Source: a virus
Taxonomy: Duplodnaviria; Caudoviricetes
DNA length: 44,668 bases
IMG/VR virus record: IMGVR_UViG_3300020042_005850
Location: 1 to 44,668 of that record
Strand: one strand, 5' to 3'
Under the pieces are notes generated by a model. That model was not told where the DNA came from and searched no databases. It saw nothing but the letters and a program-made list of their open reading frames with translations. Position numbers and translations under genes: made by a program. Numbering within the stretch: position 1 is the first letter of the stretch; each line of letters starts with the position of its first letter. Shown in pieces: positions 1-44,668 of this stretch.

Positions 1-120
1 TTTCGCAAATTGCCCAAGTGGGTTTTGCTTGTGCAATAATTCTGCGCATTTCCGGCCAGAGGTGGCGTGAATCATCTTGCGCTTTTTGGCTTCCGGCAAC
101 GCTAAAAGGCTGGCACGGGT
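1..120. repeat. Terminal direct repeat, left copy (assembly overlap of a circular contig)
   Basis: 1-120 is identical to 44549-44668. The methyltransferase ORF reads in frame across the join, giving a unique length of 44548 bp. Confidence 0.97.
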
Positions 121-325
121 AGCCACCGGTAATAATGTCAATTCCTGCAAAGTCTTCACCATTTAAAGTTTTAATGTCGTTGTGAATCGGTACGTCTTGG
201 AAATTATTAGCTAAAACTTTTTGGCAAAATGGGTCTATCTCACAGAACGCAACCGTTTCCATATTTGCCCATCTTGCAGCTAAAGCAAATCCGCCTATAC
301 CGCTGAATAAATCCAAGTGCTTCAT
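1..325 (-). CDS. C5-cytosine DNA methyltransferase, main chain, N-terminal part (continues at 44548-44121; 250 aa in total)
   Basis: Manual translation from ATG 325 gives MKHLDLFSGIGG (motif I, FxGxG), CEID (motif II) and GGYPCQPFSVAG (motif IV, catalytic PC). Confidence 0.95.
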   Translation of the reverse strand, partial: MKHLDLFSGIGGFALAARWANMETVAFCEIDPFCQKVLANNFQDVPIHNDIKTLNGEDFAGIDIITGGYPCQPFSVAGSQKAQDDSRHLWPEMRRIIAQAKPTWAICE

Positions 326-333
326 TGGCGCTC

Positions 334-418
334 ACTTAACAAGTCGTTGAAAATGGACGGTCTGCCCATTTGTGTTTTTAGCTAAATCTTCATGCCGCCT
401 TTTAACTCGGCGTTAGCT
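334..418 (+). mobile_element. attC site
   Basis: R'' ACTTAAC, 5 nt spacer, L'' GTTGAAAA ... L' TTTTAAC, 5 nt spacer, R' GTTAGCT. Confidence 0.9.
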
Positions 419-628: not shown

Positions 629-649
629 GTTTTCACTCCGTTAAGTTTC

Positions 650-718
650 ATCTAACAAATCGTTGCAGCGCGATGCGGCAAGAGTTGTCTAAATATTGTA
701 GGCCGCCATTAGTTAAAT
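650..718 (+). mobile_element. Partial attC site (left arm intact, right arm degenerate); array boundary
   Basis: ATCTAAC-AAATC-GTTGCAGC-GCGATGCGGC ... GCCGC, then no proper L' or spacer before GTTAAAT. Confidence 0.65.
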
Positions 719-734
719 TGTATTACCTAATGAT

Positions 735-3254
735 TTATTTCTGCAAGTGTACAACATTGTTTGTAGATTGTACAACACCTTTATTTTTATACACCACTGC
801 AACTTCACTTGGTGGTAAGTGTGAATACAAATGATGGTTACGTATTATCCACAACACTCCAATTTCGCTATTAACTGAGTAGTGACCCTGCATCATTTCT
901 TTCAGTAATGTAGTTAATCGGGACGCGGGTAGCGCATGTTTTATTTCACTGCAAAACATTAGGTCAGCATGGAATGCGGATGCTGTAATTAATACTGCGT
1001 TTATTTCGTTAAGCGTAACTACGTCATTAACCAAAGCACCGAGTTTATGGTTTATCAATGATTCAACAGTAAGCATTAATGGTGATTTACCACTGTCGAC
1101 AATACTACGTAAATAATCGGTCACTGGTGGCGGTAAGCCTGGATTAAATTTACTTATGTCCACTTTTGTGCGTAAGTGATTAATACATATATCAGCACCC
1201 CCATTGTCCATCCACGCCCAGTGATCAGTCCAGTACGCCTGCCACTCAGGTGTCATGTCACCACGCGCATTGCGCACGTTGAGATCGGTCCATAGCGCGA
1301 ATATCCGGCGCGACTGACCTTTTAACGATACCGGCAACAGTGAGTTAGTGGTCATGGTTACTGACACAATATTTCGTACACTCACTTTCTTTGCGAACTT
1401 TTCGTTAACACGCAGTCGATCTGGTGGCGCAGCTGCCAGTGGTTTCAACTTAGCAGAAACAGCCATCGCTTCTTGACGATCGCCCAACTCAGCTTCATTG
1501 ATATGCAGGTATTTCGTTGATAACAAATAATCATTGAAACCCTCTAAAAGCTCTTCAGCATTAATCATTGTATAGTCGCGACCCATTGCTTTAGTCAGTG
1601 GTGCTAGTAACCAATCCTTACCACAACCTTCTCCACTACCAAAGATGATCATATGGTTAATTTTAATATCAGGGTGTAATAACGTGAAAGCCATCCACTT
1701 CAAACAATGTTCTCGCTGTTCGCCACCCCACCCCAGTAAGTCAAAGTGGTTAAGCCACGGTGAAGCATCACCGTCGACGCCTATCACTTGGGCGCTGCTG
1801 GACCATGAATTGCCATACAAAATACCCTGTTCTTCAAAAATAGGAGGCTTCATAGGTGCAAAATCAAGCTTATCAACTTTGGATACTCTGCCGCCTTGAA
1901 GTGCTTCCTTACGTGCGTCTGAATCAAGGTGTGCGTACACGTTCTGGTATGCTTCCGCGCTGTACCACATTCGCTTTTTACGATCAAAAAATTGATTCTG
2001 CTCACCGACGTATATCGTGTCATCGAAAAAGTTAATACCGGCTTTATTATCGCTATACCATGTGGCACGTAGGTCTTTGAGTATTCGGTCAAACTCTCGT
2101 TTATCCCAGTTCATAATATCGCGCACTTGACTATGCCAGTTAATTTTCTGAATTTCAGGTAATGAGTCGATTGTCTTTAAAACGACAGTGGCGATATTTA
2201 CTGATTGAGTGCTGCCAGGTATCTCAGACCGCAGTTGTCGTATAGCGTCTGCGAGCGGGTCAGTAGCTAATATGGGTACTACGGGTGACTCGACCATTAT
2301 TGCGGGTGTTGCTAAATCAGCAAATGCACGACGCATTTGCCACCCGCTTAATACGGAACTAAACCCAGGTGAACTAACTTCGATGTGATCGAGCAGGTTA
2401 CGACCGGTTCTTTCTTGACACGCCCCGTGGTGACATTTAAAACCGATAGTACCGTCACCGTTGGTGAACACCGCTGAACCGCTGTCATCAGCATTAGTAT
2501 GCTCGTCAACCCACGGACAAGTAATATCAAACCTACCGTTACCGCGTACTTCCTTTACATGGATTAAATCAGAGATTTGTAATAACGGATGATCCGCGAT
2601 ATTACTGGCACCATCCACGCGTGACTCACGTCGTGCAGCATTTAAGTCAACGTGAAATGGCGACGCTAATTGTTCGAGAGTTACTGTATTAAACGGGTTC
2701 CACTGCAACATACGGCATTTGAACGGCGCACCATTGACCCACCGTGACGCTTTAGTATTATAACCATCAGGTAGTCGAACATACCGAGTGACACCTTTCA
2801 TCCCTGGGTCACGCCCCTCTGGAGCCAGACCATTGGATACCAAACCATCTAACAAATTTTCAGCTTTTGTACGATCCGTGCAGGGTGTACTCAGTATATA
2901 ACCCCATTGCTCGCTGCCACCGGATGTTTCGAGTACCCACGACGGCGAAGGTAATTTAGATACTTCCGCCATTGATAGTTTCTCACGTACATCATCAAGT
3001 ACAATGCAGTGAGTAGCACTGTACAACGACTTGCGACGACGTGCGTCACCGCGTTCGTCAGCTTTAAATGTCGATATAGTAAAATACTGGTTTGTGTCAT
3101 TACCAAAGCTGTATTGTCCAAAATAGTTGCCTCGCCATGCCATCAAGTGTTTACCAGGAGGTATAGCACCAGGGTCATCTTTGAAGTCAGTAACGTGTAC
3201 TATTGAAACGCTTGTGCCGAAAATCGCACTTAAAAATTCATAATTTGTTGGCAT
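735..3254 (-). CDS. Primase-helicase (RepB/AEP-like primase, Cys/His zinc region, DUF5906/SF3-like P-loop helicase)
   Basis: IVLDD, WVLETSGGSEQWGY and RYVRLPDG primase motifs; CPW..H..C.H..C; Walker A GSGEGCGKD; Walker B-like LHINE. Confidence 0.88.
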   Translation of the reverse strand: MPTNYEFLSAIFGTSVSIVHVTDFKDDPGAIPPGKHLMAWRGNYFGQYSFGNDTNQYFTISTFKADERGDARRRKSLYSATHCIVLDDVREKLSMAEVSKLPSPSWVLETSGGSEQWGYILSTPCTDRTKAENLLDGLVSNGLAPEGRDPGMKGVTRYVRLPDGYNTKASRWVNGAPFKCRMLQWNPFNTVTLEQLASPFHVDLNAARRESRVDGASNIADHPLLQISDLIHVKEVRGNGRFDITCPWVDEHTNADDSGSAVFTNGDGTIGFKCHHGACQERTGRNLLDHIEVSSPGFSSVLSGWQMRRAFADLATPAIMVESPVVPILATDPLADAIRQLRSEIPGSTQSVNIATVVLKTIDSLPEIQKINWHSQVRDIMNWDKREFDRILKDLRATWYSDNKAGINFFDDTIYVGEQNQFFDRKKRMWYSAEAYQNVYAHLDSDARKEALQGGRVSKVDKLDFAPMKPPIFEEQGILYGNSWSSSAQVIGVDGDASPWLNHFDLLGWGGEQREHCLKWMAFTLLHPDIKINHMIIFGSGEGCGKDWLLAPLTKAMGRDYTMINAEELLEGFNDYLLSTKYLHINEAELGDRQEAMAVSAKLKPLAAAPPDRLRVNEKFAKKVSVRNIVSVTMTTNSLLPVSLKGQSRRIFALWTDLNVRNARGDMTPEWQAYWTDHWAWMDNGGADICINHLRTKVDISKFNPGLPPPVTDYLRSIVDSGKSPLMLTVESLINHKLGALVNDVVTLNEINAVLITASAFHADLMFCSEIKHALPASRLTTLLKEMMQGHYSVNSEIGVLWIIRNHHLYSHLPPSEVAVVYKNKGVVQSTNNVVHLQK

Positions 3255-3652: not shown

Positions 3653-3653
3653 T

Positions 3654-9085: not shown

Positions 9086-9552
9086 AAATTCTAATTCTCG
9101 GACACGGTGGTCATGGTAAAGATACTTTCGCTGAAATGATTCAACGTAAGTGGGGTCTTACATTTCAGTCATCGAGTCGTGCTGCACTGGATGCAATCTA
9201 CCCACATCTTGTATCCACACTCGGTATCACCGATAAAGAAGAACTGTATCGCACCCGCAGTGAAAACCGTGGCTTATGGAAGGGTTTAATTACTGCTTAT
9301 AACACCCCCGATAAATCGCGCCTTGCTTGTAAGATTATTGAAACAAGTGATATGTATGTCGGAATGCGTTGTATTAATGAATACCAAGCAAGTAAACATT
9401 TATTTGATAAAGTATATTTTGTCGATGCAATGATTCGCTTGCCCACAGAATCAACGATGTCAATACCTTATCTACCATTAGAAATGGAATACATCTATAA
9501 CCACGGCCCCAAATCATTTTTACTAAACCAAGTTGCAGGGTTGGAGTTGTGA
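9082..9552 (+). CDS. P-loop nucleotide kinase (dNMP kinase-like)
   Basis: N-terminal ILILGHGGHGKD; GMR...E. Confidence 0.7.
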   Translation: MKILILGHGGHGKDTFAEMIQRKWGLTFQSSSRAALDAIYPHLVSTLGITDKEELYRTRSENRGLWKGLITAYNTPDKSRLACKIIETSDMYVGMRCINEYQASKHLFDKVYFVDAMIRLPTESTMSIPYLPLEMEYIYNHGPKSFLLNQVAGLEL

Positions 9553-9596
9553 ACAACTGTTTTAAAATGGATAGACCAACGGATACAACAACAACT

Positions 9597-14618: not shown

Positions 14619-17600
14619 TCATTGTTTCTTAACTGGTCCAATAACCAATTCGCGGAATGTCAACTCTTCACCTTCAGCAAGTACATTATAAATATGCTCG
14701 CCACTGTTCCACGCTTGACCAGTACCAGGTATGCCGATCCACGCCGCCGCAAGTTTCGTTACATTTTTAATATCCCGCGCTGAGACATCTTCACCTTCCC
14801 AAACTGAACTAGCAATACCGGTCGTACCTTCGATACCTTTAGCAACAAGGGATGCAACTGGTGACATACTATAATCAAAATCGGTAGCACCCGCATTTGC
14901 AAGATCCCTTACAAACGGTATTGATTGGATCGGGAACAGTGCAAGTTGCAGCGCTAGTTTCTGTGCGATTACTTCCTCGTCATCCTCATCGTCAAACTTA
15001 CCACGTAACAACATCTCGAACAGCACTGGTAAGGTGAAAAAGAACAACCCTTTAGCTGCTAAGTCAATCGCATTATATCTACCCGACTGAGTACCCTTCA
15101 CAATATCGCGCTCGATATTCCACAACGATGAGAAGAACGTCATAAACATAGTAAGCGAACGGTGTATCTCACTTTGATTGCGAAACAGTGCCGCCATGTC
15201 TTTGGTTAAACCCGAACCTTGGATCTGTTCGACCATCCAATCACCGTACTGATAGGCACGTTGCTCGTCACCATGCTCTTTCATCGCTTTGAGGTAACCA
15301 GCGTACCAACTTGGCAGATCCACCATGTAGAGCTGAATATAGGCGATATGTAACATCGAAACAGTCTGTAGATTTGCGAGTTTGCCAGACTTGTTTTGTA
15401 GAGTGCTCAACACGTTTTGGATTTCGCGGTCGAAACTTTGTGCGCGATGACTCAATGTTTTCGAGTTAGCTGAAGCAAACTCCCAAGCACCTTTGATACT
15501 ATCGGGACCAGCTAATATAGTACGGATTGCCTGAATCGTATTAGCCGCACCAGCCTCACCCATTGTGTTGAAGATACCTGATGTTTGAAGGAGTCCAGTT
15601 GTAGCCTTGAACCCCATCACACCGAGGGTAGTACCAAGGCGCAACTTGCCAAACGCTCTTTCAATAAATGTTTTGGTCTTGGTTTCACCCCCGTCTTTCG
15701 CAATGTCATTTAACCACGGTTTCAGTTGCGCGAATTCCTCTGGTCCCATCTTAGCCTTGATTGATTCAGCAATTGACTTGTTACGAATCAGCTTGTTGAC
15801 CTCACGCACCGCGTCATGGTGGGTGATAAAGTGGATCACCTCTTGGAAGTGGTTAGGTACTACGTCCAAGCTCAAACGAACCGGTGCATAGTATTTAGTA
15901 CGCTCGTTAGTAGCTGACGCATTCACCGATGATTGAATACTACCCGTAGTGCTAAACATTGATTCTGTGTTAGCGTTCAATCGTTCATCATTCAACTCAG
16001 CTTTATGTGACCGGTTAGGGTCGTACTTCATTGGATAGTAACCACCGCTGAACGTACCGAATGGCGTGACCACGGGCGTCGCTTCAACCTTCGGTGGAGT
16101 GAGTCCTGTGGTGCGACGGTGTACTTCAGCCAGTTGCGGATAAAGCTGATCCATACGATCCCAGATAAGCTGTACCAACTGCCAATCTGATTTGGTCATA
16201 TGTTTGAGCACAGCCTGCAACTTATGATTGTTGAAGCTGATCTCAGCGTCATTTTCAGGATTCGCCCAACCCTCACCCAGTAACATTTTACGAAGGTTGC
16301 CCGCGTTACCTGTGTTGAGCGCCACCGCTAATATCTGGTGGCCCATCAAGTTACCATCATTTTTATCGTCTTTAATTTCTTCAATAAACACTTTTGCATT
16401 GTGGCGCTTCTTATCCGCGTTACTGCGGTTCTCGATAGCTTTCATCACATCATTACCGATCTGTTTCCACAGTGCGACCTCAGCATGCTTAGCATCATTA
16501 AACACTTGCACGAATACACTGTGAGTTAAACCCACACGTTCACCACCATCGAGCCAGCTTGCAAGGTAAGGAATCTTAGTCATTTGACCCATTGCCCAGC
16601 GGCCATAGTTCTTATCTTCAACTACGGTGGTGCGTTGTGACTTGAATCTAGCTGGCAATGCCGACCAATGATCCACTAGCTTGTTGACCAGTTTCTTGAA
16701 TGTGATTTCTTCACCCATACGAACCATTTTGTTGGAGTAGCGCGCTACGTGTTCAATATTCTTAACAGAATCCGATACACCTTGAATGTCGTTGTACTTA
16801 ACATTTTTCCAATGGTCTTTATACAACTCGTTCAGCACCACTGGTGACAGTACAAGACCATCGCCATCGAGCCCCATACGCTCAGCAGCCCATGTGTTAA
16901 TGTCTTGATTATGCTGTTCAACCGAGGTGAGTGTCGCTGATTTACGGAACTCGAATCGTTCAAGGATTTTGACGATCTGCTCCCAGTAACCGTTCTCAGC
17001 TTTCATAATTTCTTCGCGCACTTCCTTCTTGTTGTAGCGACCCATAGTGTCAACAATCTTGGTGATGTTGTTCTGTGCCGCTACCGCTTCCATTCCTAAG
17101 AAGTAATTCATTACTTGACGCGCTTTAGCTGCTGCTGCACCTTCCATGTTACCTTTCGCAAACATGGAAGCCGCTTCCATAGCCGCCTTGATCTCAGCAT
17201 TACGGTACTTGTTCGGGTGAATCTGGCGGTAGCTCAGCTTACCAATTGTTTCTTCAGCAAGGCCACGGATGATTTCCCGGTCGATGCTGCGTTGACCACG
17301 GCTGAGTATCTTCAGCTCAGCAAGAATCAAGCGGCCGCGTTCTTCATTCTGCACTGCGTCATCAGCTTCCTTCTCAATGGAACCATCGTTCAAGATGTCA
17401 CCATGTCGATCTAACATAATCACTTCAGCACGATCGGCAGCAGCCTCACCGATGGGTTTAGCTTTGGTGATAGCGTCGATCATCTCAGCGCCAGAACCGT
17501 AACCGAAGAATGCAGCAGCCTCGTCGGGGTGAACACCAGTGGCACCCTTAGCGGTCATGTTGGTAAGTGCTGAAGGTATACGGGTTGAGGTGATACCTCG

Positions 17601-20600
17601 TGCATCAGTTTTCTCAGTACCGTAAAGTTCTTTTACAGTAGCGTGGTCAAGTTTGAAGTCACCATTACGTAAGGTGTCGATTGATTTATACACCGGCAAT
17701 GCTTTCAATACTGTCAACTCAGTGTCGATGAGATCTTGTTTCTCATCCTTCCATGCTTGCTTCTTGGTGCGGGTGATCTGGGCGATTAACTTGTCGCGAA
17801 GTGTTTCAGTAGACGCACCTTTAACCTTTTCTACTCTTTCATTGTATGCTGTGAACTCAGCCTCGGTCATACCCGCCGCCGCTGCATCTGTGAACATTGG
17901 TGCGAATCTTGCACGAGCTTCAGCCATCTTGATTTGTTCTTCAGTGGCGATCATGGTGTCGAATACTTTACGCATCTCGTCATCAAGTTTTACATTAAGC
18001 CCTTTGATCGACTTGTAAATCTCAACGAACCAACGGGCGAAGGTACGGAACACATTACGCATCTCGATAGAAGGCGCTTTACCTTCCATCAGGTACGCTT
18101 CCCATCCACGGGCGAACTGTTCATGTGTGGTAATGCGAAGTGCTGAGTCAATGTCAGTATCACCAGTGGTGCCGTTATCGAGGTACAGGGTCACATCGCT
18201 GGGGGTGACCACCAATGGTGGACGAGTGAAGTCAGGTTGTTCTTTAGCGATAATCTCGTTAGCTTCTTTTGCAACATCAACCGCGTTACGCTTAAACCAG
18301 TTGTGGATACCTTCAACTTTTTTACCGTTCGACTTCAACTCAGTCTCATACATGAAGTGTGCGAACTCGTGCATGAACGTGGAAAGGTTCGATGCTTCAG
18401 TTAAACGAATGAGTGAGTTTGCGGGTTCGTAGTAGCCGCGTGACTTTTGTGCAAAAGATTCAGGCGCACTCTTACTCAACGCTTCAGGTACAGCCAGCTC
18501 CATGCCGCCCATCACCACGATAGCCTCACTCATGGGAACGTCAGCATCAGTCGCTATGGATCTTACACGGCGTTGTTCTGGGGTGAGCTTCAACCGAGCT
18601 TGTGTGATACGCGCTTCGATCTCGCCACCTAACGCGAGGTAAATGTCATGCGGTGTCTTGAAGCGTACCGAACTCGCAACCACTGCCGCGCGCTTAGCTT
18701 TACCAAGCAGCTCTTGACGTGGTTTCAATAACTCTTTAGCTTTGGATGCTTCGCGACTAAGCGCCTTGATCATACCCGCCATGGTGCGGGTATCGTTCTC
18801 AAACATGGTGATTTGAGCTTCAGGGATCTGCGACTTCAGGAACGCACCAATGCTGAACGCAATGTCACGTGCAGCTTCTTGACGCTTTGGTCCACTGCGA
18901 GGTATGTCGTAGAACTTGCGTTGTAGGTCATTAGCTTCACGGTTACCACGGAACTTGTCGTCATAGATCCATTGTGATTCGTTCAGGATGTTACGAAACA
19001 CACCGCTTGGTTTATCACGGGTGGAGTATTCAATGAGGCGTTTGTAGGATTGGTACATCAGCGCGTTGCGTGACAGCTCCGCAGCCTTATCAACGGTTTT
19101 AAACTTCCACTGGTTGCGGTAGTCCCACGTATCCAGTTTGTTGGTCATGTCAGCATCGAGGCGTTGCAGTACCGCCTTCACGCTATCGGTGAAGGGTTTA
19201 CCGTCGTTGCCGCCGCGTGCGAAATCTTCAAGCTCTTGAATAGCGTGTTGGAGTTCATGCATCAGGGTTGATAGTTGCTCGCTTTCGCTCTTGCTGTTGT
19301 TTATTGCAATGGTATTTGTTTTAGCATCATAGTAACCATTTTCATTATCGGGCATTTTCTCAAAAACTAAGTTGATATTGCGAAGTGATGGGTACGCTTT
19401 GAACAGTGCAGAATGGTTCAGCACTCCACCAACGGTGTTATATTTTTTAACCTTAATCTCAACTAATTCAATAACTTGTTCACGTTGGTTTTCATCAAGT
19501 GACCCGAAACTTTCATCGAACAATTCACGAGCCGAACTCCTTACCAAATGACGATGTTCAGGAATCTCACTCGGCTTAATCGACCACTCAGCCTCATGGT
19601 CACTAATCTCATAGCGCCACTTACCATCCACCCCCATGAACCAACCGGTGTCACGCTGGATCGCGTTATTACCTAAACCCTGTTCGCGCATGTGTTTAGC
19701 ACGATCAAGCTCAGCCATTGGCACGCCTTGTGCATTGACGCCTACGAACTGGTTGAACTTAGACGGTGTAGCTGGTGTATATGTAAAACTGATCGGCGGC
19801 GTGTACGCTTCACCATCGAAGTCTAATGTAACGTCATCCTGTTTTAGATAACTGATTTTTTCATAGTAGGATTTCGCACTTTTAGTGGAATCTACAACCG
19901 CAAGTCGTTTACCGGTTTGATCCGCGTACTTTTTAAGTTGGTTGATTACAGACGTACCACGACCCGTACCTGTTGCAACTTCAGCAAGATCATCTAATTT
20001 CTTAGCAGCAATACTGGTGAGATAAATGTTATTTTCGTCTTCACGAATAGACGCTTGTACTTGAGCATTGTCAAATTTCAATACAACACTTTCACCCAGT
20101 ACCGAGTCTGGTTTACCCTCTTTGACCACTTCACCGAGTGATTTAACACTATCCATAGCCGTACTGAACGACTGATTCAACGCATCCAGCTCAGCACCCA
20201 TGCGAGCAGCTTCGCCCGTCTGTGGCCCCTGAATCACAAGGCCAGATTGTTCATAAGCCTGTTGAATAGTAATCCCGTTATCACGCGCAAACACGGTAGC
20301 CCACGCGGGCACAATGCGCGCCATCGCATCCGCATTCTTAGAATTGATTCGACCGGTATCTATCAACTGCTGCTTAACAGTATCAAATATCTGTTGAGAC
20401 TCGACATACTGACTCGCGTTCTCATTCGCACGAGCCATCATATCAGTCATATAAGTTTCGGTTTCATCCTGCGACTGCTTCAAGCGAAACGGTGACGGGG
20501 CGGTACCGTTCAGGTTCATAAACTCACGTAACGCGGTGAAGTGTTCTGTTCCTGCAATGTGAGTAGCGAAGTCGGCAATGGGTATCACAACATCACTACC

Positions 20601-22082
20601 GAGTGTCGCCGCGTCATTGACACCTGCTGCTAGTAACTTGACCGCTGGTGATTGTTTATCGTCAACGGTGTCGAGATACAACTTAGCTTGTACCCCATCA
20701 ATGAATACGTGAGTGTTGTTATCACCGTTGGCCTGTGACATGAATTGGTGAAATGAATCAGTATCACGGCGACGCAACTCTGAGTTATTGGCATCTACCG
20801 CGATTGAATCAATGGTGGTTTGATCAGTTTGAAACTGTGATATTTCTTCATCACGCTTTTTAGCAAAGTGTTCGATGGTCTTACGCAATCCACCTACACC
20901 ACCGGCTTGAATAGAACCCGCAACCACAGTAGAACCGAGCGTGATTAATTGACGCTCAGCTTGTAACTTGATTTTTTCTTCAAGTGTAGTGGCGTTGTTC
21001 CACTCATCATCAATACCGTTCAACACTGCATTGGTAGTTTGCCCCGCTGTTGCTACTTGCTCACCTAATACTTCGGTAACGGCGTATTTTAATATTTTCT
21101 TTTTAAGATCACCACCATCGAGAGCACTACCTAATGCCTTTGTAGGAAGGTATTCAGTACCCATTTCGATAATAGAATCTACTGAACCATAGAGTAAAGC
21201 ATCGTCGTGACTCAACCCACTGCGACGACCTTCTGCGTAAGAATCACCGAAGGTAAACGTACCCGCTGATACAATCGCAGGAGTGGCGCTGCGGGTAGCT
21301 AAGGAGGCAATTAAACCAGGTGCCGATACCATTACAGACTCAACTCCACCACGTAACATTTTCTGACCCATGTTCAAGTCGCGAGGTGTGTTTTCTGAGA
21401 TCTCTTTATGAAGGGTTGCGATACGCTCATTAACTTTAGCAGTGTTCGCTATGAATTCAGGTGACGAGGTATCTTCAACACCTAGGGTTTTCGCCATTGC
21501 AATCTGTTCAGGTAATAACTTTGAGTAATCAATACCGTCACCCTCGGACGACGCTTGTATCAGACTTCTGCCGGCTAGCTCCATTCTGCGAATGAAATTA
21601 CCCCCTGAACCTTCGAATGTATTGCCGATACGGTTCTCAGTAATTACCTCGGTATCGGCTGTGAATTCAGTAACTTTTCTCAGTGCTGATTCAATCTTCT
21701 TCAACACACTAATGTCATCATGAGCAATGGATGCTTTGTTGAAGTCACTCATGAATTTACCGGTAGCTGGGTGATCTGTAAAATCCTCACTAGCCACTTT
21801 TTGAGCACGGTGATCTGCTTCGATACCTGCGGGGTCAACCTCAACATCAGCGACAGGAATGCCCGTGACTTTACTGAGGTTGTTCAGCTTGACTTGTTGA
21901 TCTGGATTTATGCGAGCAGCTTCAGATAGTACAGCACTTGCCGCGGGTTGGTCTTCAAACATGGACAAGTCGAGAGGGGAGTCGGGGGTTAATGACCCCT
22001 GTTTAGTAGTGATGCCTTGAGTCTGTTGTTCGGTGGTAGTGGGTTGGTCTTCAAACATTGACAGGTCTAAGGTATCACTCAT
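14619..22082 (-). CDS. Large internal virion (DNA ejection) polyvalent protein, 2487 aa
   Basis: Position after the tail genes; largely helical; GWFMGVDGKWRYEISD, two HExxH motifs (HELQH, HEFAH) and a GNAT-like GTGRGT segment. Confidence 0.8.
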   Translation of the reverse strand: MSDTLDLSMFEDQPTTTEQQTQGITTKQGSLTPDSPLDLSMFEDQPAASAVLSEAARINPDQQVKLNNLSKVTGIPVADVEVDPAGIEADHRAQKVASEDFTDHPATGKFMSDFNKASIAHDDISVLKKIESALRKVTEFTADTEVITENRIGNTFEGSGGNFIRRMELAGRSLIQASSEGDGIDYSKLLPEQIAMAKTLGVEDTSSPEFIANTAKVNERIATLHKEISENTPRDLNMGQKMLRGGVESVMVSAPGLIASLATRSATPAIVSAGTFTFGDSYAEGRRSGLSHDDALLYGSVDSIIEMGTEYLPTKALGSALDGGDLKKKILKYAVTEVLGEQVATAGQTTNAVLNGIDDEWNNATTLEEKIKLQAERQLITLGSTVVAGSIQAGGVGGLRKTIEHFAKKRDEEISQFQTDQTTIDSIAVDANNSELRRRDTDSFHQFMSQANGDNNTHVFIDGVQAKLYLDTVDDKQSPAVKLLAAGVNDAATLGSDVVIPIADFATHIAGTEHFTALREFMNLNGTAPSPFRLKQSQDETETYMTDMMARANENASQYVESQQIFDTVKQQLIDTGRINSKNADAMARIVPAWATVFARDNGITIQQAYEQSGLVIQGPQTGEAARMGAELDALNQSFSTAMDSVKSLGEVVKEGKPDSVLGESVVLKFDNAQVQASIREDENNIYLTSIAAKKLDDLAEVATGTGRGTSVINQLKKYADQTGKRLAVVDSTKSAKSYYEKISYLKQDDVTLDFDGEAYTPPISFTYTPATPSKFNQFVGVNAQGVPMAELDRAKHMREQGLGNNAIQRDTGWFMGVDGKWRYEISDHEAEWSIKPSEIPEHRHLVRSSARELFDESFGSLDENQREQVIELVEIKVKKYNTVGGVLNHSALFKAYPSLRNINLVFEKMPDNENGYYDAKTNTIAINNSKSESEQLSTLMHELQHAIQELEDFARGGNDGKPFTDSVKAVLQRLDADMTNKLDTWDYRNQWKFKTVDKAAELSRNALMYQSYKRLIEYSTRDKPSGVFRNILNESQWIYDDKFRGNREANDLQRKFYDIPRSGPKRQEAARDIAFSIGAFLKSQIPEAQITMFENDTRTMAGMIKALSREASKAKELLKPRQELLGKAKRAAVVASSVRFKTPHDIYLALGGEIEARITQARLKLTPEQRRVRSIATDADVPMSEAIVVMGGMELAVPEALSKSAPESFAQKSRGYYEPANSLIRLTEASNLSTFMHEFAHFMYETELKSNGKKVEGIHNWFKRNAVDVAKEANEIIAKEQPDFTRPPLVVTPSDVTLYLDNGTTGDTDIDSALRITTHEQFARGWEAYLMEGKAPSIEMRNVFRTFARWFVEIYKSIKGLNVKLDDEMRKVFDTMIATEEQIKMAEARARFAPMFTDAAAAGMTEAEFTAYNERVEKVKGASTETLRDKLIAQITRTKKQAWKDEKQDLIDTELTVLKALPVYKSIDTLRNGDFKLDHATVKELYGTEKTDARGITSTRIPSALTNMTAKGATGVHPDEAAAFFGYGSGAEMIDAITKAKPIGEAAADRAEVIMLDRHGDILNDGSIEKEADDAVQNEERGRLILAELKILSRGQRSIDREIIRGLAEETIGKLSYRQIHPNKYRNAEIKAAMEAASMFAKGNMEGAAAAKARQVMNYFLGMEAVAAQNNITKIVDTMGRYNKKEVREEIMKAENGYWEQIVKILERFEFRKSATLTSVEQHNQDINTWAAERMGLDGDGLVLSPVVLNELYKDHWKNVKYNDIQGVSDSVKNIEHVARYSNKMVRMGEEITFKKLVNKLVDHWSALPARFKSQRTTVVEDKNYGRWAMGQMTKIPYLASWLDGGERVGLTHSVFVQVFNDAKHAEVALWKQIGNDVMKAIENRSNADKKRHNAKVFIEEIKDDKNDGNLMGHQILAVALNTGNAGNLRKMLLGEGWANPENDAEISFNNHKLQAVLKHMTKSDWQLVQLIWDRMDQLYPQLAEVHRRTTGLTPPKVEATPVVTPFGTFSGGYYPMKYDPNRSHKAELNDERLNANTESMFSTTGSIQSSVNASATNERTKYYAPVRLSLDVVPNHFQEVIHFITHHDAVREVNKLIRNKSIAESIKAKMGPEEFAQLKPWLNDIAKDGGETKTKTFIERAFGKLRLGTTLGVMGFKATTGLLQTSGIFNTMGEAGAANTIQAIRTILAGPDSIKGAWEFASANSKTLSHRAQSFDREIQNVLSTLQNKSGKLANLQTVSMLHIAYIQLYMVDLPSWYAGYLKAMKEHGDEQRAYQYGDWMVEQIQGSGLTKDMAALFRNQSEIHRSLTMFMTFFSSLWNIERDIVKGTQSGRYNAIDLAAKGLFFFTLPVLFEMLLRGKFDDEDDEEVIAQKLALQLALFPIQSIPFVRDLANAGATDFDYSMSPVASLVAKGIEGTTGIASSVWEGEDVSARDIKNVTKLAAAWIGIPGTGQAWNSGEHIYNVLAEGEELTFRELVIGPVKKQ

Positions 22083-40265: not shown

Positions 40266-40390
40266 GGCAGATTGGTAAGGGTGTGGAATCTTTCACAGCT
40301 AAGTAAATACATGGCCTACGCCGCATTTTCACATTATCAAACCTAAGTTACTGATTTTTATAGATTCGATTTTGTGGAAATGCGGCCTGA

Positions 40391-40412
40391 GCCGCTGAAT
40401 AAACTGTTATGT
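40391..40412 (+). mobile_element. Partial attC (right arm only); left array boundary
   Basis: GCCGCTGAAT-AAACT-GTTATGT, preceded by an inner stem GCCGCATTTTCACA/TGTGGAAATGCGGC. No intact R''. Confidence 0.65.
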
Positions 40413-40413
40413 T

Positions 40414-40566
40414 TTAGTCTTCATATTCCATTATGTGCAAAATTGCTTGTAGCTCTTCTGCTGTAAATGTGCCATCTAATTGAACCTCTTCATCGTCACC
40501 AATAAATTTAATCTCTCTATCTTTTTTAATATCTTTGATTATTTCTCTTGCCTCAAAACCTCTCAT
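40414..40566 (-). CDS. Cassette hypothetical protein (50 aa, not in the ORF track)
   Basis: MRGFEAREIIKD...LHIMEYED; AGGTGA RBS. Confidence 0.7.
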   Translation of the reverse strand: MRGFEAREIIKDIKKDREIKFIGDDEEVQLDGTFTAEELQAILHIMEYED

Positions 40567-40573
40567 AAGTCAC

Positions 40574-40738
40574 CTATTTATTTTTCAGGCTTTCCGCACA
40601 ACCAAGCAGCACAATTTTAAAAAGCTCCGGTTTGTCTTTGTGCCAGTTTATTAAAGTCTGCGCGCTCTGGCCGGTTAATTGCTGAACTTGAAGCAGGTTT
40701 TTTAGTCCTGCCTCTTTTGCCTGTTGGCTTGGGGTCAT
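40574..40738 (-). CDS. Small HTH DNA-binding protein (54 aa, not in the ORF track)
   Basis: MTPSQQAKEAGLKNLLQVQQLTGQSAQTLINWHKDKPELF; HTH pattern; GAGGTG RBS. Confidence 0.75.
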   Translation of the reverse strand: MTPSQQAKEAGLKNLLQVQQLTGQSAQTLINWHKDKPELFKIVLLGCAESLKNK

Positions 40739-40899
40739 TTAAGCACCTCAAAATAATGGCTTTCAATAAATCCACCGCCAACTGCAAAACCTGAAGATGT
40801 TATTTTTTCAGTTCTAACGGTCCAAACCTCACCAGGTTTAAATTTAAACCTAGGAAGAAACGCATCTTTTACAATGCGCACATTTGTATATTTCTCCAT
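40735..40899 (-). CDS. Cassette hypothetical protein
   Basis: MEKYTNVRIVKD...; coupled to the upstream and downstream ORFs. Confidence 0.65.
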   Translation of the reverse strand: MEKYTNVRIVKDAFLPRFKFKPGEVWTVRTEKITSSGFAVGGGFIESHYFEVLK

Positions 40900-40900
40900 A

Positions 40901-41047
40901 TTAAACCACCGAACTGTATGTGCCATTTTCGTACGCAGTGCAAGAGTAAAAGGCTTTGCCTCTTGGTTTTTGGAGCTTGAGAAGTGTGCGCCCGTTAACT
41001 TTCGTTGATTTTATTACTTTGTATTCTTGGCCGTTTATTGTTAACAT
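40901..41047 (-). CDS. Cassette hypothetical protein (48 aa, basic, not in the ORF track)
   Basis: MLTINGQEYKVIKSTKVNGRTLLKLQKPRGK...; GAGGG RBS; directly after a promoter. Confidence 0.7.
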   Translation of the reverse strand: MLTINGQEYKVIKSTKVNGRTLLKLQKPRGKAFYSCTAYENGTYSSVV

Positions 41048-41079
41048 TTTTTAACCCTCGTTTGTGTTTGTATGTTGTT

Positions 41080-41107
41080 AGTATAACAAACTATTTGAAG
41101 GAATCAA
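41080..41107 (-). promoter_or_regulatory. Sigma70-type promoter internal to the first cassette
   Basis: TTGATT-16 nt-TATACT with an extended -10 TG. Confidence 0.7.
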
Positions 41108-41130
41108 GCTTTATTTAAAACTATTTGATT

Positions 41131-41334
41131 TTATGTGTTCGGTGCTGAAAGAAATCGCCAATGCGTGTAGTTGTGTAAATAGTTATGGTCACAATCCCCA
41201 TATTTGTCTATCTTATCAATGTAGTGTAAAGGTGAGTCTCTCATTGTTTTTTCGCCATCGTAAAATTCAACCCAAGTCTCTATTGGTGGCGTGCGGGGTT
41301 TTTCACCAGTACGCCATATTTTTATCCATTCCAT
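41131..41334 (-). CDS. DUF551-like small phage protein
   Basis: MEWIK...P...THW..L..P pattern; GAGG RBS. Confidence 0.6.
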   Translation of the reverse strand: MEWIKIWRTGEKPRTPPIETWVEFYDGEKTMRDSPLHYIDKIDKYGDCDHNYLHNYTHWRFLSAPNT

Positions 41335-41349
41335 ATCTATAACCTCTAT

Positions 41350-41562
41350 TTAGTCTATTCCAAGTTCCGTCACATTTACTGGTTCTATCGTAAAGTTGCA
41401 GCCAAACTGTGCAACATTAAACGCTAAATGTTCGTCACAAAAACAACCATTGGCGCGTACTATTTTTCCCGTTGCTGGTTTTTTGCAGTTAAAAAACTTG
41501 CACATAACAAGCGTATCAACTGGACAAGCCAAGGCGTTGCTGTTTTCTGTCTCAAGTTCCAT
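41350..41562 (-). CDS. Cassette Cys/His protein whose N-terminus is encoded inside attC
   Basis: MELETENSNALACPVDTLVMC is read from the attC left arm; C...C...CDEH. Confidence 0.6.
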   Translation of the reverse strand: MELETENSNALACPVDTLVMCKFFNCKKPATGKIVRANGCFCDEHLAFNVAQFGCNFTIEPVNVTELGID

Positions 41563-41619
41563 AAATTTCACCGTGTTAAAAGTTTTTCATTTGCTTGCGC
41601 AGTTATCCGAGCGTTACAT
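41502..41619 (+). mobile_element. attC site
   Basis: ACATAAC-5-TATCAACT ... AGTTATC-5-GTTACAT. Confidence 0.88.
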
Positions 41620-41622
41620 TCA

Positions 41623-41820
41623 CTAGCCTAACACCTTATTCAAATTCTCAAACTCTGAAAAAGTAATGCTTCGAGTGAAAGTTAAAACCCATTTTTCCGG
41701 CTGTTTTTGTGTGAACAAAATTAGCTCATTAAATTCACCCTCAAATACATCCATATCGTAGTTCCAAGGGTTTGAATTATTAAACTTGTTCTGCCACATG
41801 TAAGAATAAAACCAATACAT
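41623..41820 (-). CDS. Cassette hypothetical protein
   Basis: Strong RBS AGGAGGTGA. Confidence 0.8.
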   Translation of the reverse strand: MYWFYSYMWQNKFNNSNPWNYDMDVFEGEFNELILFTQKQPEKWVLTFTRSITFSEFENLNKVLG

Positions 41821-41851
41821 AAATCACCTCCTAAATTAAATTGCTATGCAA

Positions 41852-41924
41852 ATGTAACCAGTCGTTGGTACTCGCTCGTTCCTCGCTGGACGCACTACGT
41901 GCGCCGCACAACTCGGCGTTATGA
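41852..41924 (+). mobile_element. attC site
   Basis: ATGTAAC-CAGTC-GTTGGT ... GCACAAC-TCGGC-GTTATGA. Confidence 0.88.
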
Positions 41925-42137
41925 CTCTAGCGCTAGTTTTGCTTTTTCTTCTACTCTGTCAAACCCAACTCCGTAAACATTACCTTGGGTTTGTTGCACG
42001 TAGCGTAACCCGCTTCTAGCATCTAGCAACGCATCTTCTAGCTGGCGTGCTTGTCGCGCAAACTCATCCATAGTCCACTCGTCTGGCCTATCAGTTCTAT
42101 ATCGTTCTAATTTTTCGCTTAGCTTCACTTTCATCAC
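41919..42137 (-). CDS. Cassette hypothetical protein
   Basis: GGAG RBS; stop in R'. Confidence 0.8.
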   Translation of the reverse strand: MMKVKLSEKLERYRTDRPDEWTMDEFARQARQLEDALLDARSGLRYVQQTQGNVYGVGFDRVEEKAKLALES

Positions 42138-42149
42138 TCCGGTATTTGG

Positions 42150-42237
42150 TCATAACAAGGCGTTCCAGCACGGATGCTGCAAGAACTCGCCTTGTAGTTG
42201 GTTTTGGTGCTGGCACCGCTGAACATTGGCGTTATGT
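42150..42237 (+). mobile_element. attC site
   Basis: TCATAAC-5-GTTCCAGC ... GCTGAAC-6-GTTATGT. Confidence 0.92.
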
Positions 42238-42489
42238 AGCCATCCAATCAAGATTATCCCCGTACTTTGAGCGTAATGCCGTTGAAAACTCTTCGCCAGT
42301 GGCAGGAGTTTCATTTCTTTGTACTTCTAGCCATTTTGCAATTCTTTCGCGCTCGGCTATTTCTGCTTCCATTACAGATTGTTTTAATGCCTGCAATAAA
42401 CTTCTACTATTCGGCATTCCAACATTTTCCATAAGCTGCTTGTATCTTTCATCTGTTAACATATCTAAATCCTCGCAAGCATCCGACAC
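42232..42489 (-). CDS. Cassette hypothetical protein
   Basis: Fills the cassette from R'' to R'; start uncertain (GTG 42489 or internal ATG). Confidence 0.75.
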   Translation of the reverse strand: MSDACEDLDMLTDERYKQLMENVGMPNSRSLLQALKQSVMEAEIAERERIAKWLEVQRNETPATGEEFSTALRSKYGDNLDWMAT

Positions 42490-42573
42490 ATAACAAAAAT
42501 ATGAACTGGATGCGGTTTAAGTTGGGCGCACTTCTGTTTAGTTAGAAGCGCACCAGTTATATTGGCGTTAAGT
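42488..42573 (+). mobile_element. attC site
   Basis: ACATAAC-5-TATGAACT-GGATGCG ... CGCACC-AGTTATA-5-GTTAAGT. Confidence 0.92.
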
Positions 42574-42768
42574 GTTCTCAATCATCGAGTTCGGCACTCG
42601 TAATTGAAGTTTTTCATAAATGCTTTTTGCTAACCGGTAGTCTTCTTTTTCTAAGTATTCTGGGTTTAGGTCTTGCACGGCGTTGAACCACTGGCATACC
42701 TTGTAAAGCTCGTTTTGCGTAAGCATTTTTTGAACAAGTGGGTCACCGCCTTGATTGTCTTGTGCCAT
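42568..42768 (-). CDS. Cassette hypothetical protein
   Basis: GGAG RBS; stop in R'. Confidence 0.75.
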   Translation of the reverse strand: MAQDNQGGDPLVQKMLTQNELYKVCQWFNAVQDLNPEYLEKEDYRLAKSIYEKLQLRVPNSMIENT

Positions 42769-42808
42769 TTTCTTTAACTCCGTAGTTAAATTTTTACCGT
42801 TAGAATCT

Positions 42809-42917
42809 ACTTAACAAGTCGCTGAAAGGCGACGGTTCATAAATCTGTTTTCTGTTCTGGCATCTTCATGCCGCGCTTTACTCTCATTCCCTGCCGCAAT
42901 TTATAACGGCGTTACAT
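42809..42917 (+). mobile_element. attC site (composite, with two right arms)
   Basis: Left arm ACTTAAC-AAGTC-GCTGAAAG; an incomplete matching arm GCCGCGCTTTACTC; then a second arm GCCGCAATTTATAACGGCGTTACAT. Confidence 0.75.
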
Positions 42918-43106
42918 TTCAATGTTGTTGAAAGCCTTAACCTTTATTTCAACCTCGGATGGCCGTATTGGGTAGAATTTATCATCAATAATTTTTCTGC
43001 AAATATCCAGCAAATTGTCTTTTGATAAATCCGCGTCAATGATTCCAAACCAAAATTTATTTACGTCTTTATTCCAAAGCTCAAACTGCAAAAAATATGT
43101 TTTCAT
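42912..43106 (-). CDS. Cassette hypothetical protein
   Basis: MKTYFLQF...; GGTGGT RBS; stop in R'. Confidence 0.78.
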   Translation of the reverse strand: MKTYFLQFELWNKDVNKFWFGIIDADLSKDNLLDICRKIIDDKFYPIRPSEVEIKVKAFNNIEM

Positions 43107-43118
43107 ACCACCACCAAA

Positions 43119-43201
43119 ATGTAACAAAGTTATCAAACGGATGCGGCTATAACACCGCATTATTTATTTTCGTACTGGCACCGTTTATAACGGCGTTATG
43201 T
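43119..43201 (+). mobile_element. attC site
   Basis: ATGTAAC-5-TATCAAAC-GGATGC ... GCACC-GTTTATA-5-GTTATGT. Confidence 0.92.
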
Positions 43202-43390
43202 GTACGTCCTGCACTTGCTTTCCATGTGCTGGCTTGATTCAAAAAATCCATGCGCCCAATAATCCTCAAAATCACAATCTTTGCATTTCGTGAATGCTTC
43301 GCTAATAATTCCGTTGTCAGTATCATTAGCCTCAACTTCGTTTTTCCCTCCGCATTTGTTGCAAGAGTCTTTAACGTGGTAAGTCGCCAT
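43196..43390 (-). CDS. Cassette zinc-ribbon protein
   Basis: CNKC...CKDC; GGAG RBS adjacent to R''; stop in R'. Confidence 0.78.
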   Translation of the reverse strand: MATYHVKDSCNKCGGKNEVEANDTDNGIISEAFTKCKDCDFEDYWAHGFFESSQHMESKCRTYT

Positions 43391-43400
43391 AAGTAGCTCC

Positions 43401-43484
43401 ACATAACCAGTAAATGAACGCGACGGAATTAGAGCGTCGCAATGTTTTAAATCTTACAGCCGCAGCGTTATTAAGGCGTTATAC
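43401..43484 (+). mobile_element. attC site
   Basis: ACATAAC-5-AATGAACG ... CGTTATT-5-GTTATAC. Confidence 0.9.
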
Positions 43485-43709
43485 GGCGCTCTTGTCGTCC
43501 AGCGTTCTAACTCGCTCAACATTGCCGCACTTGTTGCACTTAACGCGTAAATGGTCTTTTTTGGCAGTAAGCTTGTAAAATAAATCATACTCGCTGCTTT
43601 GCACGAACTCGGTTTCAATCCGCTTTAGAGAAGACGAGTCAATTACGTTTGTTCTAACTATGAATTTAGTATCTAAATCTTTGCTTCCGCACTTATTACA
43701 GTTTTCCAC
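43479..43709 (-). CDS. Cassette zinc-ribbon protein
   Basis: CNKCG...CNKCG; GTG start likely; stop in R'. Confidence 0.75.
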   Translation of the reverse strand: MENCNKCGSKDLDTKFIVRTNVIDSSSLKRIETEFVQSSEYDLFYKLTAKKDHLRVKCNKCGNVERVRTLDDKSAV

Positions 43710-43721
43710 TTCGTCTGCCCC

Positions 43722-43807
43722 GTATAACAAGTAGCGTCAAAATGACGCGGTTTAAATATCAGTTTTTAATGCTTACTCCCAGCGCGCATTTGCGCTAAGC
43801 GTTAAAT
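43722..43807 (+). mobile_element. attC site
   Basis: GTATAAC-5-GCGTCAAAATGACGCG ... CGCGCATTTGCGC-5-GTTAAAT. Confidence 0.88.
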
Positions 43808-44038
43808 ATCATCCGCAACACTGTACGCTGTAATTAGCGTCAGGCTCGATGGAACTTCATATTCGTGTCGTTTATTGATTTCGATAAGCTTTTCAATTGC
43901 GGCTTCTTCTGAATCATGGCCGCCCCAACTATTAAGTGATTCAGTATTGTAATATGCGCCGAATTCTTTTGGCTCTTTCAGCAACCCATCGCTCGTTAAT
44001 TCTTTCCAGTAGTATTTTTTCTTAATCATCGCAAGCAT
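43802..44038 (-). CDS. Cassette hypothetical protein
   Basis: Fills the cassette; stop in R'. Confidence 0.8.
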   Translation of the reverse strand: MLAMIKKKYYWKELTSDGLLKEPKEFGAYYNTESLNSWGGHDSEEAAIEKLIEINKRHEYEVPSSLTLITAYSVADDI

Positions 44039-44043
44039 CCCAA

Positions 44044-44126
44044 ATTTAACGCCGTTATGAAATTGACGGAAATAGAATTCCGCGTTTAGTTAGTTCGTGC
44101 AGCCGCAATTTATAACGGCGTTAAGT
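44044..44126 (+). mobile_element. attC site (fully paired outer stem)
   Basis: ATTTAACGCCGTTAT-G-AAATTG-A-CGG ... CCG-CAATTT-ATAACGGCGTTAAGT. Confidence 0.9.
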
Positions 44127-44548
44127 GGCGCTAATAGCCCGCAAAAGCTCGTAGGCCACCATCGGATCAATTGCGTTACCTAATGATTTATTTCTGTCCA
44201 TCCTATTGGGTAATTCATCATCCACTCTAAGCGCAGGGGGCTTAATTCCCCATCGCCCAATCGCACGGCCTCGCCAGTCCACTCCAAACCGTAAACCGCA
44301 GCGTCCTTCATTGTTGCTATCTTTTTCCGGCCCTTGCGCGCAGTATTCATTTGCCGCGCCATCGCTTCTGGTGACCTCGCTTTCATTGCGTCCATTGCTT
44401 GCGGCGTAGGCCACAATAAAAACTCGCTCCCTGTTATGGTTTGCACCTGTGCTGAGAGCTGGAACAACAAACGGTTGGCAGGCGTAACCAAGGGCTTCCA
44501 AATCGTGCAACACACAGTCCAGTCCCAAAGCGATGTGGCCATAAACAT
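44121..44548 (-). CDS. C5-cytosine DNA methyltransferase, main chain, C-terminal part
   Basis: ENV (motif VI), HNRERVFIVA (motif VIII) and SLGNAIDP (motif X). No motif IX in this frame. Stop TAA lies in the attC R' box. Confidence 0.93.
44180..44548 (-). CDS. Putative second (beta) subunit of the methyltransferase, overlapping in the +1 frame (start ATG at 162 across the junction; 176 aa)
   Basis: Open frame MVKTLQELTLLP...LWPTP...LSPLRLEWMMNYPIGWT, whose C-terminus resembles C5-MTase motif IX. It is fully nested in the main gene. Confidence 0.75.
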   Translation of the reverse strand: MFMATSLWDWTVCCTIWKPLVTPANRLLFQLSAQVQTITGSEFLLWPTPQAMDAMKARSPEAMARQMNTARKGRKKIATMKDAAVYGLEWTGEAVRLGDGELSPLRLEWMMNYPIGWTEINH

Positions 44549-44668
44549 TTTCGCAAATTGCCCAAGTGGGTTTTGCTTGTGCAATAATTCTGCGCATTTC
44601 CGGCCAGAGGTGGCGTGAATCATCTTGCGCTTTTTGGCTTCCGGCAACGCTAAAAGGCTGGCACGGGT
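44549..44668. repeat. Terminal direct repeat, right copy
   Basis: Identical to 1-120. Confidence 0.97.

Follow-up and report, generated by a model that had tools for sequence, protein, structure and literature searches.

The virus genome IMGVR_UViG_3300020042_005850, analyzed over positions 1–44,668 of its full record (hereafter the window), is a complete circle of 44,668 nt with a 120-nt terminal repeat and carries an array of attC recombination sites with no neighboring integrase gene. The traits that set this array apart are (i) an attI-like site at its entry, (ii) genes that read in the direction opposite to those of bacterial integron cassettes, and (iii) exchange of bodies and hairpins among phages at defined bases. 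On these grounds, the phage probably carries an integron platform without its integrase and would use an integron integrase (IntI) of the Cellvibrio type, provided in trans by the host. The anatomy, polarity, breakpoints, absence of the enzyme, and attI match derive from the sequence and its comparison with other genomes. Given the terminal repeat, the array on the circle spans 40406–44548 plus 1–705 and consists of 11 cassette bodies with 16 predicted, mostly small open reading frames (ORFs).

Ten attC sites of 73–118 nt separate the bodies (Table 1), and all lie where the initial annotation, made from the letters alone, had placed them. A strict scan for the architecture R″/spacer/L″ (plus one extra base)/L′/spacer/R′ recovers nine of the ten in the 4.9-kb array on the plus (top) strand and none on the minus strand, against a mean of 0.35 (maximum 4) in 300 dinucleotide shuffles and two matches in the remaining 39.7 kb. 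A covariance model, the check which that annotation had proposed, was built from 40 of 74 Cellvibrionaceae attC sites that belong to bacterial cassette arrays, most of them beside intI. In an unfiltered search of the window, it matches all ten sites on the minus (bottom) strand with E-values of 1e-10 to 7e-3, and nothing else in the window falls below E 0.4. The TAAC/GTTA cores pair in all ten sites, which have RYYYAAC-type R″ boxes, GTTRRRY-type R′ boxes, and spacers of 5 nt and 5–6 nt. In nine of them, L″ and L′ pair at 6–7 of 7 positions with an extrahelical base at L″ position 4. The site at 42809 fails the pairing test, and its left and right parts match different hairpin families; what had been described as ten complete sites is thus nine intact sites and one chimera, which is likely inactive. 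The right arm is missing from an eleventh site (648–705), which is joined to 53 nt left over from a methyltransferase 3′ end (691–743); this remnant is identical to 44144–44196 at 43 of 53 positions (score 66 versus a maximum of 36 in 500 shuffles) and implies that a second methyltransferase cassette was deleted. The remnant overlaps the primase stop and stands in place of the right arm of the last attC. The core and the inverse core (7 nt) are complementary at 7/7 positions within all ten complete bodies of the window and within 214 of 237 bodies overall, while in-place complementarity is limited to 27 of 248 sites, a pattern expected from the movement of whole bodies. The count of 11 cassettes given earlier agrees with the 11 bodies on the circle, except that the first is a fusion of several cassettes. 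A six-frame search of the complete circular genome for a tyrosine recombinase (PF00589) yields no match, as the initial annotation had also noted.

All 16 ORFs lie on the minus strand, which is the bottom strand of attC, the reverse of bacterial cassettes. Further arrays were fetched with three hairpin motifs from the window; repeat fetches, a locus with a single site (L114), one without a site by the scan (L145), and the chromosomal L105 were excluded. In addition to the window, the final set of 41 arrays has 37 loci from 36 IMG/VR contigs and three phage-like contigs of metagenome-assembled genomes. Selection by hairpin motif inflates the sizes of hairpin families, but polarity was not selected for. 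When polarity is assigned by the longest ORF in bodies under 520 nt, 160 of 190 phage bodies are inverted, 2 are canonical, and 28 are unclear. The same rule returns 31 canonical, 2 inverted, and 2 unclear among 35 host bodies, and all 74 host attC sites point one way, so that the polarity call is sound. Gene stops fall within the R′ box in 117 of 198 bodies, and the first start with a Shine–Dalgarno sequence lies in the body in 149 cases and in the hairpin in 7, with none found in 42. Starts in hairpins are limited to long hairpins, and the notion that most genes begin inside the hairpin was rejected on the 7 of 198. The loop of attC 1 contains the predicted start of ORF 41350–41571, and long hairpins of the same family also start ORFs in L091 and L096. 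In hairpins of 132–133 nt (L089, L099, L100, L102, and L121), the arms resemble a host attC family, and unrelated proteins are fused to a common N-terminal leader that, like a ribosome-binding site, is encoded in the loop. Speculatively, the inversion could keep host anti-phage cassettes antisense, and hence silent, when they land at a phage attI; according to the available sections of 10.1101/2024.07.02.601686, host integron cassettes are often anti-phage. Alternatively, it might make the bottom strand the template of lagging-strand synthesis, a placement that promotes recombination at attC sites with weak folding (available text of PMC5371416).

On the top strand, the attI-like site, a 41-nt motif with G|TTA at its end, forms the 5′ end. 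It scores 41.6 bits with a weight matrix derived from 15 phage arrays other than the window, the runner-up in the genome reaching 10.4, and its GTTATGT is complementary at 7/7 positions to R″ of the first attC. Among 26 held-out arrays, window included, 15 reach 20 bits or more, in each case ahead of the first attC and with no such score on the reverse strand; in at least four of the 11 misses, the sequence is truncated near the first site. The motif also occurs in 55 of 277 genomes of Cellvibrionaceae (the family, with records titled Cellvibrio and Pseudoteredinibacter), 36 of which belong to the Cellvibrio genus set (64 genomes), while a reversed control gives 0. In Cellvibrio genomes, it is found 204–342 nt upstream of a divergent intI; a divergent intI 204–338 nt upstream accompanies 8 of the 30 motif loci examined, and in G260 the site beside intI scores 43 bits and closely resembles that of the window. 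Across the family, IntI exceeds the cut-off in 44 of 61 genomes, and most of 33 intI loci have a short core only, with two above 20 bits. The exact 16-nt attI core alone was rejected as a diagnostic, with 29 of its 30 viral matches having a low motif score and no attC, and a degenerate hairpin pattern matched 1 of 151 family genomes. Some Cellvibrio genomes (G249, G257, G258, and G262) contain 5–11 copies of the motif, most of the sampled copies being without a nearby intI; such orphan sites are possible seeds of the phage platform. The attI-like site of the window is overlapped from its upstream side by a long, imperfect inverted repeat (40320–40387; z of roughly −3 to −4), and several of the other arrays share an AAGTYATTGAT-like motif ahead of attI.

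Comparison of the 41 arrays, which hold 237 bodies in 200 families, reveals how units are exchanged. Full-length homology links 21 pairs of bodies from different contigs. G|TT is the left limit of identity in all 21, and three of the shared bodies follow attI in one phage and attC in the other. It is unlikely, though not negligibly so, that the hairpins and attI are now mere shared linkers of host origin, shuffled by phage annealing proteins and exonucleases at box-end microhomology and with no part for IntI. The window phage does encode an exonuclease and a single-stranded DNA-binding/annealing protein; the chimeric hairpin at 42809, the methyltransferase remnant, and partial-body matches are microhomology events; many sites fold weakly; and hairpin exchange at AAC is not a canonical IntI product. 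Against this account, only 4–6 bases leftward of G|TT are shared in the 21 pairs, attI/attC pairs included, and in 361 of the 391 hairpin pairs whose left arms are nearly identical, the right arm has stayed with the left. The intact attI at the proper end of 15 of the 26 held-out arrays and the precise host-type cassette at the attI of contig G206, described below, also speak against it.

The initial annotation had expected variation among relatives to be bounded by G|TT, which holds for the left end of every pair, while the right end often lies at AAC|. In nine pairs, the hairpin travels with the body (seven at ≥83% identity; 1.5% of random pairs reach ≥85%), the behavior of an IntI cassette. 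In the other 12, a different hairpin follows and identity drops to background right after the AAC of R″; most of these bodies are 90–96% identical, and two of the pairs involve the window. Among 178 hairpin pairs that are at least 90% identical, six share the upstream body and none the downstream body. Hairpins 96–98% identical to attC 4 occur between unrelated flanks in L090 and L100, the methyltransferase 5′ end is joined to another hairpin family in sequencing run X1, and run contigs on the array cover hairpins far more than bodies. Among 39 host bodies, none is shared between genomes, so that hairpin exchange may not be special to phages. It is hardly credible that the array is an assembly chimera formed through repeated hairpins. 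Near-identical hairpins do occur in many phages, and no run spanning the array was found, yet the ten hairpins differ from one another, 7/7 core-site matches span each body, the record closes into a complete circle, and the same layout recurs at 40 more loci, of which some belong to complete circles. A wrong join within an identical hairpin could change cassette order but would leave the R″ junctions as they are.

Two further lines of evidence connect these arrays to Cellvibrio hosts. Contig G206, which is siphophage-like and has tape measure, RecT, and spanin genes, carries a canonical gene for a 200-aa protein directly behind its attI-like site. The hairpin that closes this gene is long, pairs well, and shares 94% identity with a Cellvibrio attC; the gene product has a 34% homologue in a chromosomal cassette array, and the inverted phage cassettes come after the gene. 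Though a single case, it is the outcome expected of a host IntI that acts on the attI of a phage. Inverted bodies in L101 and L133 have host-type hairpins as well. The second line is an array of clustered regularly interspaced short palindromic repeats (CRISPR), presumably type I-F-like, in Cellvibrio genome G240, in which 3 of 37 spacers match these phage arrays. One of them matches 42493–42524, within attC 4 of the window, at 31 of 32 positions with a CC protospacer-adjacent motif on the minus strand.

IntI cuts the folded bottom strand at R′, which leads to insertion at attI or to excision between two attC sites; top-strand cuts at R″ are much less frequent (top-strand recombination was 1,000–10,000 times rarer for tested sites), as given in the available part of PMC5027507. 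In the proposed mechanism, host IntI would recombine the folded bottom strand, here the coding strand, at the G|TT of R′ during infection. Units would be inserted at attI and excised between attC sites, which would lead to gain, loss, and reordering. Transcription would run towards attI from phage promoters at the far end of the array or inside it, each gene would have its own ribosome-binding site, and a few starts would lie in a hairpin loop. A second crossover at the AAC of R″, which has less support, would most simply be attC × attC recombination of top strands; excision of this kind would give a body the hairpin of its neighbor with nothing flipped. The 12 swaps and the near lack of flipped units agree with top-strand excision but also with microhomology recombination at TAAC. 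The use of two crossover points, R′ and R″, would also suit a different enzyme acting in trans, such as a host XerCD-like recombinase or a tyrosine recombinase of a helper phage. Such an enzyme is improbable: the entry site matches one beside a bona fide IntI (TIGR02249, 381 bits), the hairpins fit a model of IntI-linked attC sites, and array-bearing contigs yielded two recombinases, both of them ordinary phage integrases. The interpretation in the initial annotation is thus partly borne out: host IntI acting in trans has good comparative support from the attI match, the G|TT breakpoints, the G206 cassette, and the CRISPR link, while the inverted polarity, the attI-like site, and hairpin exchange at R″ are features that it did not contain.

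A number of observations weigh against the use of a host IntI. Many sites are predicted to fold poorly. Because plain minimum-free-energy folding was uninformative at several sites, constrained folding was used, and the resulting bottom-strand fold probability is ≥0.1 at four of the ten window sites (41502, 42488, 43119, and 44044) and ≤5e-5 at another four. The median is 0.0075 for 246 phage sites versus 0.34 for 71 host sites. Low folding values are also found in Vibrio integrons (available text of PMC5371416), and neither folding nor skew gives a sign of weaker strand selectivity in phage than in host hairpins. Decay by other routes is seen in the chimeric site, the broken site, and the hairpins lost beside attI, which is the place of the newest cassettes in integron logic, and it affects both ends of the array. 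The rarity of top-strand cleavage in the accessible sections of PMC5027507 means that IntI may not explain hairpin exchange. As for the entry site, 22 of the 30 host motif loci lack an intI within 1.5 kb, and attC is present in that range at just 3 of the 22, so that the motif may have other roles; the 32-nt site of the window has no match within three mismatches in the 64 Cellvibrio genomes. The G240 spacer that hits the window matches L120 at 31 of 31 positions, i.e., it targets a shared hairpin family and marks the host range of the system rather than that of the window phage. Both intI copies in this one genome (L319 and L320) are interrupted by stops. A comparison of 20 kb of structural genes of the window with the 277 Cellvibrionaceae genomes yields one 36-nt match and no prophage, and no sequencing run contains more than 0.10 of the words of the array. 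A tyrosine recombinase, in neither case IntI, occurs in 2 of 37 array-bearing virus records, but only 6 of 40 array records searched are at least 90% complete; most are fragments, and their lack of intI is not proof.

The phage arrays also differ from the sedentary chromosomal integrons of Cellvibrionaceae, with which they share the attI motif, box layout, extrahelical bases, related arm sequences, and core complementarity. The window has no intI, and its genes are antisense and face attI. Phage bodies are shorter than host bodies (median 251 versus 504 nt), phage hairpins are shorter and weaker (median 85 nt and −8.6 kcal/mol versus 108 nt and −25.3 kcal/mol), and there is almost no common cargo, with 1 of 237 phage bodies having a homologue in the host loci compared. 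These differences bear on the very improbable scenario in which a bacterial cassette array was acquired a single time and persists as a relic that no longer moves and is decaying. Site loss and breakage in the window, and the presence of arrays in only 1 of 32 capsid relatives in a loose first look, are in keeping with a relic. The comparisons largely refute it, in that host cassettes are canonical and about twice as long, their homologues are nearly missing from the phage bodies, and bodies 91–98% identical occupy different positions in unrelated phages. Moreover, the GP7 capsid family of the window is present in only 1 of 24 array-bearing contigs; this and the 1 of 32 capsid relatives indicate that the array is not a lineage trait.

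Clusters of attC sites lacking integrases (CALINs) are defined by at least two attC sites and no neighboring integrase (PMC4889954, as far as its text is available), a definition that the window shares, with its sites on the same strand, under 4 kb apart, and without intI. Of the parts of a complete integron, the window appears to have attI at the 5′ end of the top strand; it lacks intI, and a scan upstream of the attI-like site found no consensus promoter on the plus strand that could stand for Pc. The array is therefore a CALIN by definition rather than a complete integron, with a new layout: unlike CALINs as described in the sections of PMC4889954 at hand, it keeps an attI-like site, shows signs of ongoing exchange, and has inverted genes.

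The suggestion in the initial annotation that phage attC systems were undescribed is contradicted by Qi et al. 2023 (PMC9892861), the available text of which reports 17 CALINs in 10,705 phage genomes, with 2–4 sites where listed. IntI1 recombined five of six phage attC sites tested; the two from PH101, which resemble the window sites in layout, were recombined at the bottom strand more than at the top. Like the window, these clusters have no intI, occur in virulent phages, have methyltransferase cargo, and are expected IntI substrates. They differ in size (2–4 sites versus 10 in the window and up to 14 in L094), and attI is mentioned in the sections seen only for a cryptic Shewanella prophage with intI. 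Polarity relative to attC, exchange between phages, and hairpin replacement are not discussed in those sections. In the PH101 CALIN (L001; NC_029094, 75,900–78,000), the model gives four matches and the annotated genes are all antisense to the attC top strand, whereas the CALIN of phage TJE1 has canonical polarity. Inverted phage arrays, phage attI without intI, and attC exchange at R″ were not found in the literature searched, which lacked most subscription papers, and the accessible parts of PMC12901181, PMC8946536, and 10.1101/2025.06.18.660453 contain nothing on inversion, phage attI, or R″ exchange. The creation of cassettes is called unknown in the available portion of Cury et al. 2016 (PMC4889954).

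If the phage does use a host IntI, phage attC clusters would be a working system rather than stray passengers, with a phage-kept attI and a hijacked host recombinase whose usual cargo includes anti-phage genes. The R″ exchange of hairpins would provide a handle on how cassettes acquire attC. The 200 body families in 41 arrays represent a pool of uncharacterized small phage genes with strong turnover and are candidates for counter-defense or host takeover functions. A bolder and rather doubtful extension is that unrelated Cellvibrio phages share a mirror-image cassette pool run by host IntI, in which a few host-derived attC hairpins are joined to ordinary phage genes and exchanged at R″. If true, cassette assembly would have been caught in nature, along with a route by which genes gain or change attC, and the inversion would leave host anti-phage cassettes silent inside the phage.

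Phages of the T4 type have promoter–stem-loop (PeSL) elements, linker or boundary sequences that promote modular shuffling. As with these linkers, short shared elements between small early genes mark the exchange points in the window. The window elements differ from PeSL modules in being attC-type hairpins with a single-base crossover and an attI partner.

Table 1. Array features and the terminal repeat on the circular 44,668-nt record (CM, covariance model; HTH, helix-turn-helix; fold probability, that of the bottom strand)
Feature	Coordinates	Strand	Remarks
attI-like entry site (putative), 41-nt motif	40372..40412	+	predicted crossover G|TT between 40406 and 40407
First body, six ORFs	40406..41508	−	fusion of three or four cassettes without hairpins
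First-body ORFs	40414–40566, 40574–40738 (HTH-like), 40735–40926, 40901–41047, 41131–41334 (weak DUF551), 41350–41571	−	
Sigma-70-like promoter, inside first body	41080..41107	−	consensus 9/12, extended −10; scan overall not above shuffles
attC 1, 118 nt	41502..41619	+ (top strand)	CM E 2e-6; fold probability 0.48
Cassette ORF, 65 aa	41623..41820	−	no family; body 91% identical in L089 with another hairpin
attC 2, 73 nt	41852..41924	+	CM E 4e-3; fold probability 5e-5
Cassette ORF, about 72 aa	41919..42137	−	no family; body and its hairpin on 306-nt contig of run X1
attC 3, 88 nt	42150..42237	+	CM E 6e-5; fold probability 2e-5
Cassette ORF, up to 85 aa	42232..42489	−	no family
attC 4, 86 nt	42488..42573	+	CM E 1e-10; contains CRISPR protospacer 42493–42524
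Cassette ORF, 66 aa	42568..42768	−	no family
attC 5, 109 nt	42809..42917	+	CM E 7e-3; fold probability 1e-7; L boxes 5/7
Cassette ORF, up to 82 aa	42912..43160	−	no family; body 94% identical in L089 with another hairpin
attC 6, 83 nt	43119..43201	+	CM E 1e-8; arms 79% like a host attC
Cassette ORF, 68 aa, CxxC motifs	43196..43402	−	PHROG 2993, E 7e-6
attC 7, 84 nt	43401..43484	+	CM E 6e-5
Cassette ORF, up to 83 aa, zinc-ribbon-like (below cut-off)	43479..43730	−	
attC 8, 86 nt	43722..43807	+	CM E 6e-9; 97.5% identical hairpin in L095, other flanks
Cassette ORF, 75–78 aa	43802..44038	−	no family; five homologues, 57–88% identity, none named
attC 9, 83 nt	44044..44126	+	CM E 1e-4; fold probability 0.67; arms 82% like a host attC
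C5 cytosine methyltransferase cassette, 250 aa	325 to 1, then 44548 to 44121	−	PF00145, E 2.5e-21 and 4e-31
attC 10, 85 nt	334..418	+	CM E 2e-7; 98.8% identical hairpin in L087, other flanks
Cassette ORF, 71 aa	413..628	−	no family
Broken attC and methyltransferase remnant	645..743	+	R″ and left arm only; abuts primase stop; no CM match
Terminal direct repeat, 120 nt	44549..44668		copy of positions 1–120; circular assembly overlap

Two parts of the first body are separate attC-bounded cassettes in L095 and L144, its 41131 unit runs on into an R″ box in contigs of runs X2 and X7, and the promoter region is 89% conserved in L095. The frame of the methyltransferase is intact across the join of the circle (5′ part in 1..325, 3′ part in 44121..44548). 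Of the cargo previously described as phage-type, only the methyltransferase passes the Pfam cut-off, the DUF551, zinc-ribbon, and HTH matches being weak. The PADLOC search matched none of 12 array proteins, and an Rfam search gave no match. Homologues of the 43196–43402 product at 13 loci (43–83% identity) have no attC match at any of them, which indicates that the cargo also exists as ordinary phage genes. A blastn comparison of the array with cultured phages returned a single 80-nt match besides the methyltransferase.

Head, tail, and replication genes, including the GP7 capsid, Bbp16, and Bbp19, place the window phage among BPP-1-like podophages. The closest cultured phages by capsid are Vibrio phages 1.021, 1.185.O, PS25B.1, and MZH0603 (79–80% identical), which have the same gene order, divergent primase included, but in which no attC site was found. 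A search for related loci via the primase confirmed none. A short tandem repeat at about 3807–3934, inside ORF 3626–4111, matches a repeat of MZH0603 (9115–9223) at 99–100%. The SNF2 helicase (9549–11981) has 810 aa versus about 500 aa in the Vibrio relatives, and its extra C-terminal part, which matches PHROG 11354, is possibly an insertion or fusion. The region 14619–22082 encodes a 2,487-aa virion protein with the large-polyvalent-protein domains LPD22 and LPD23 and a metallopeptidase-like domain. Vibrio phage 1.185.O has an annotated mini CRISPR array within a gene (L003, 28101–28318).

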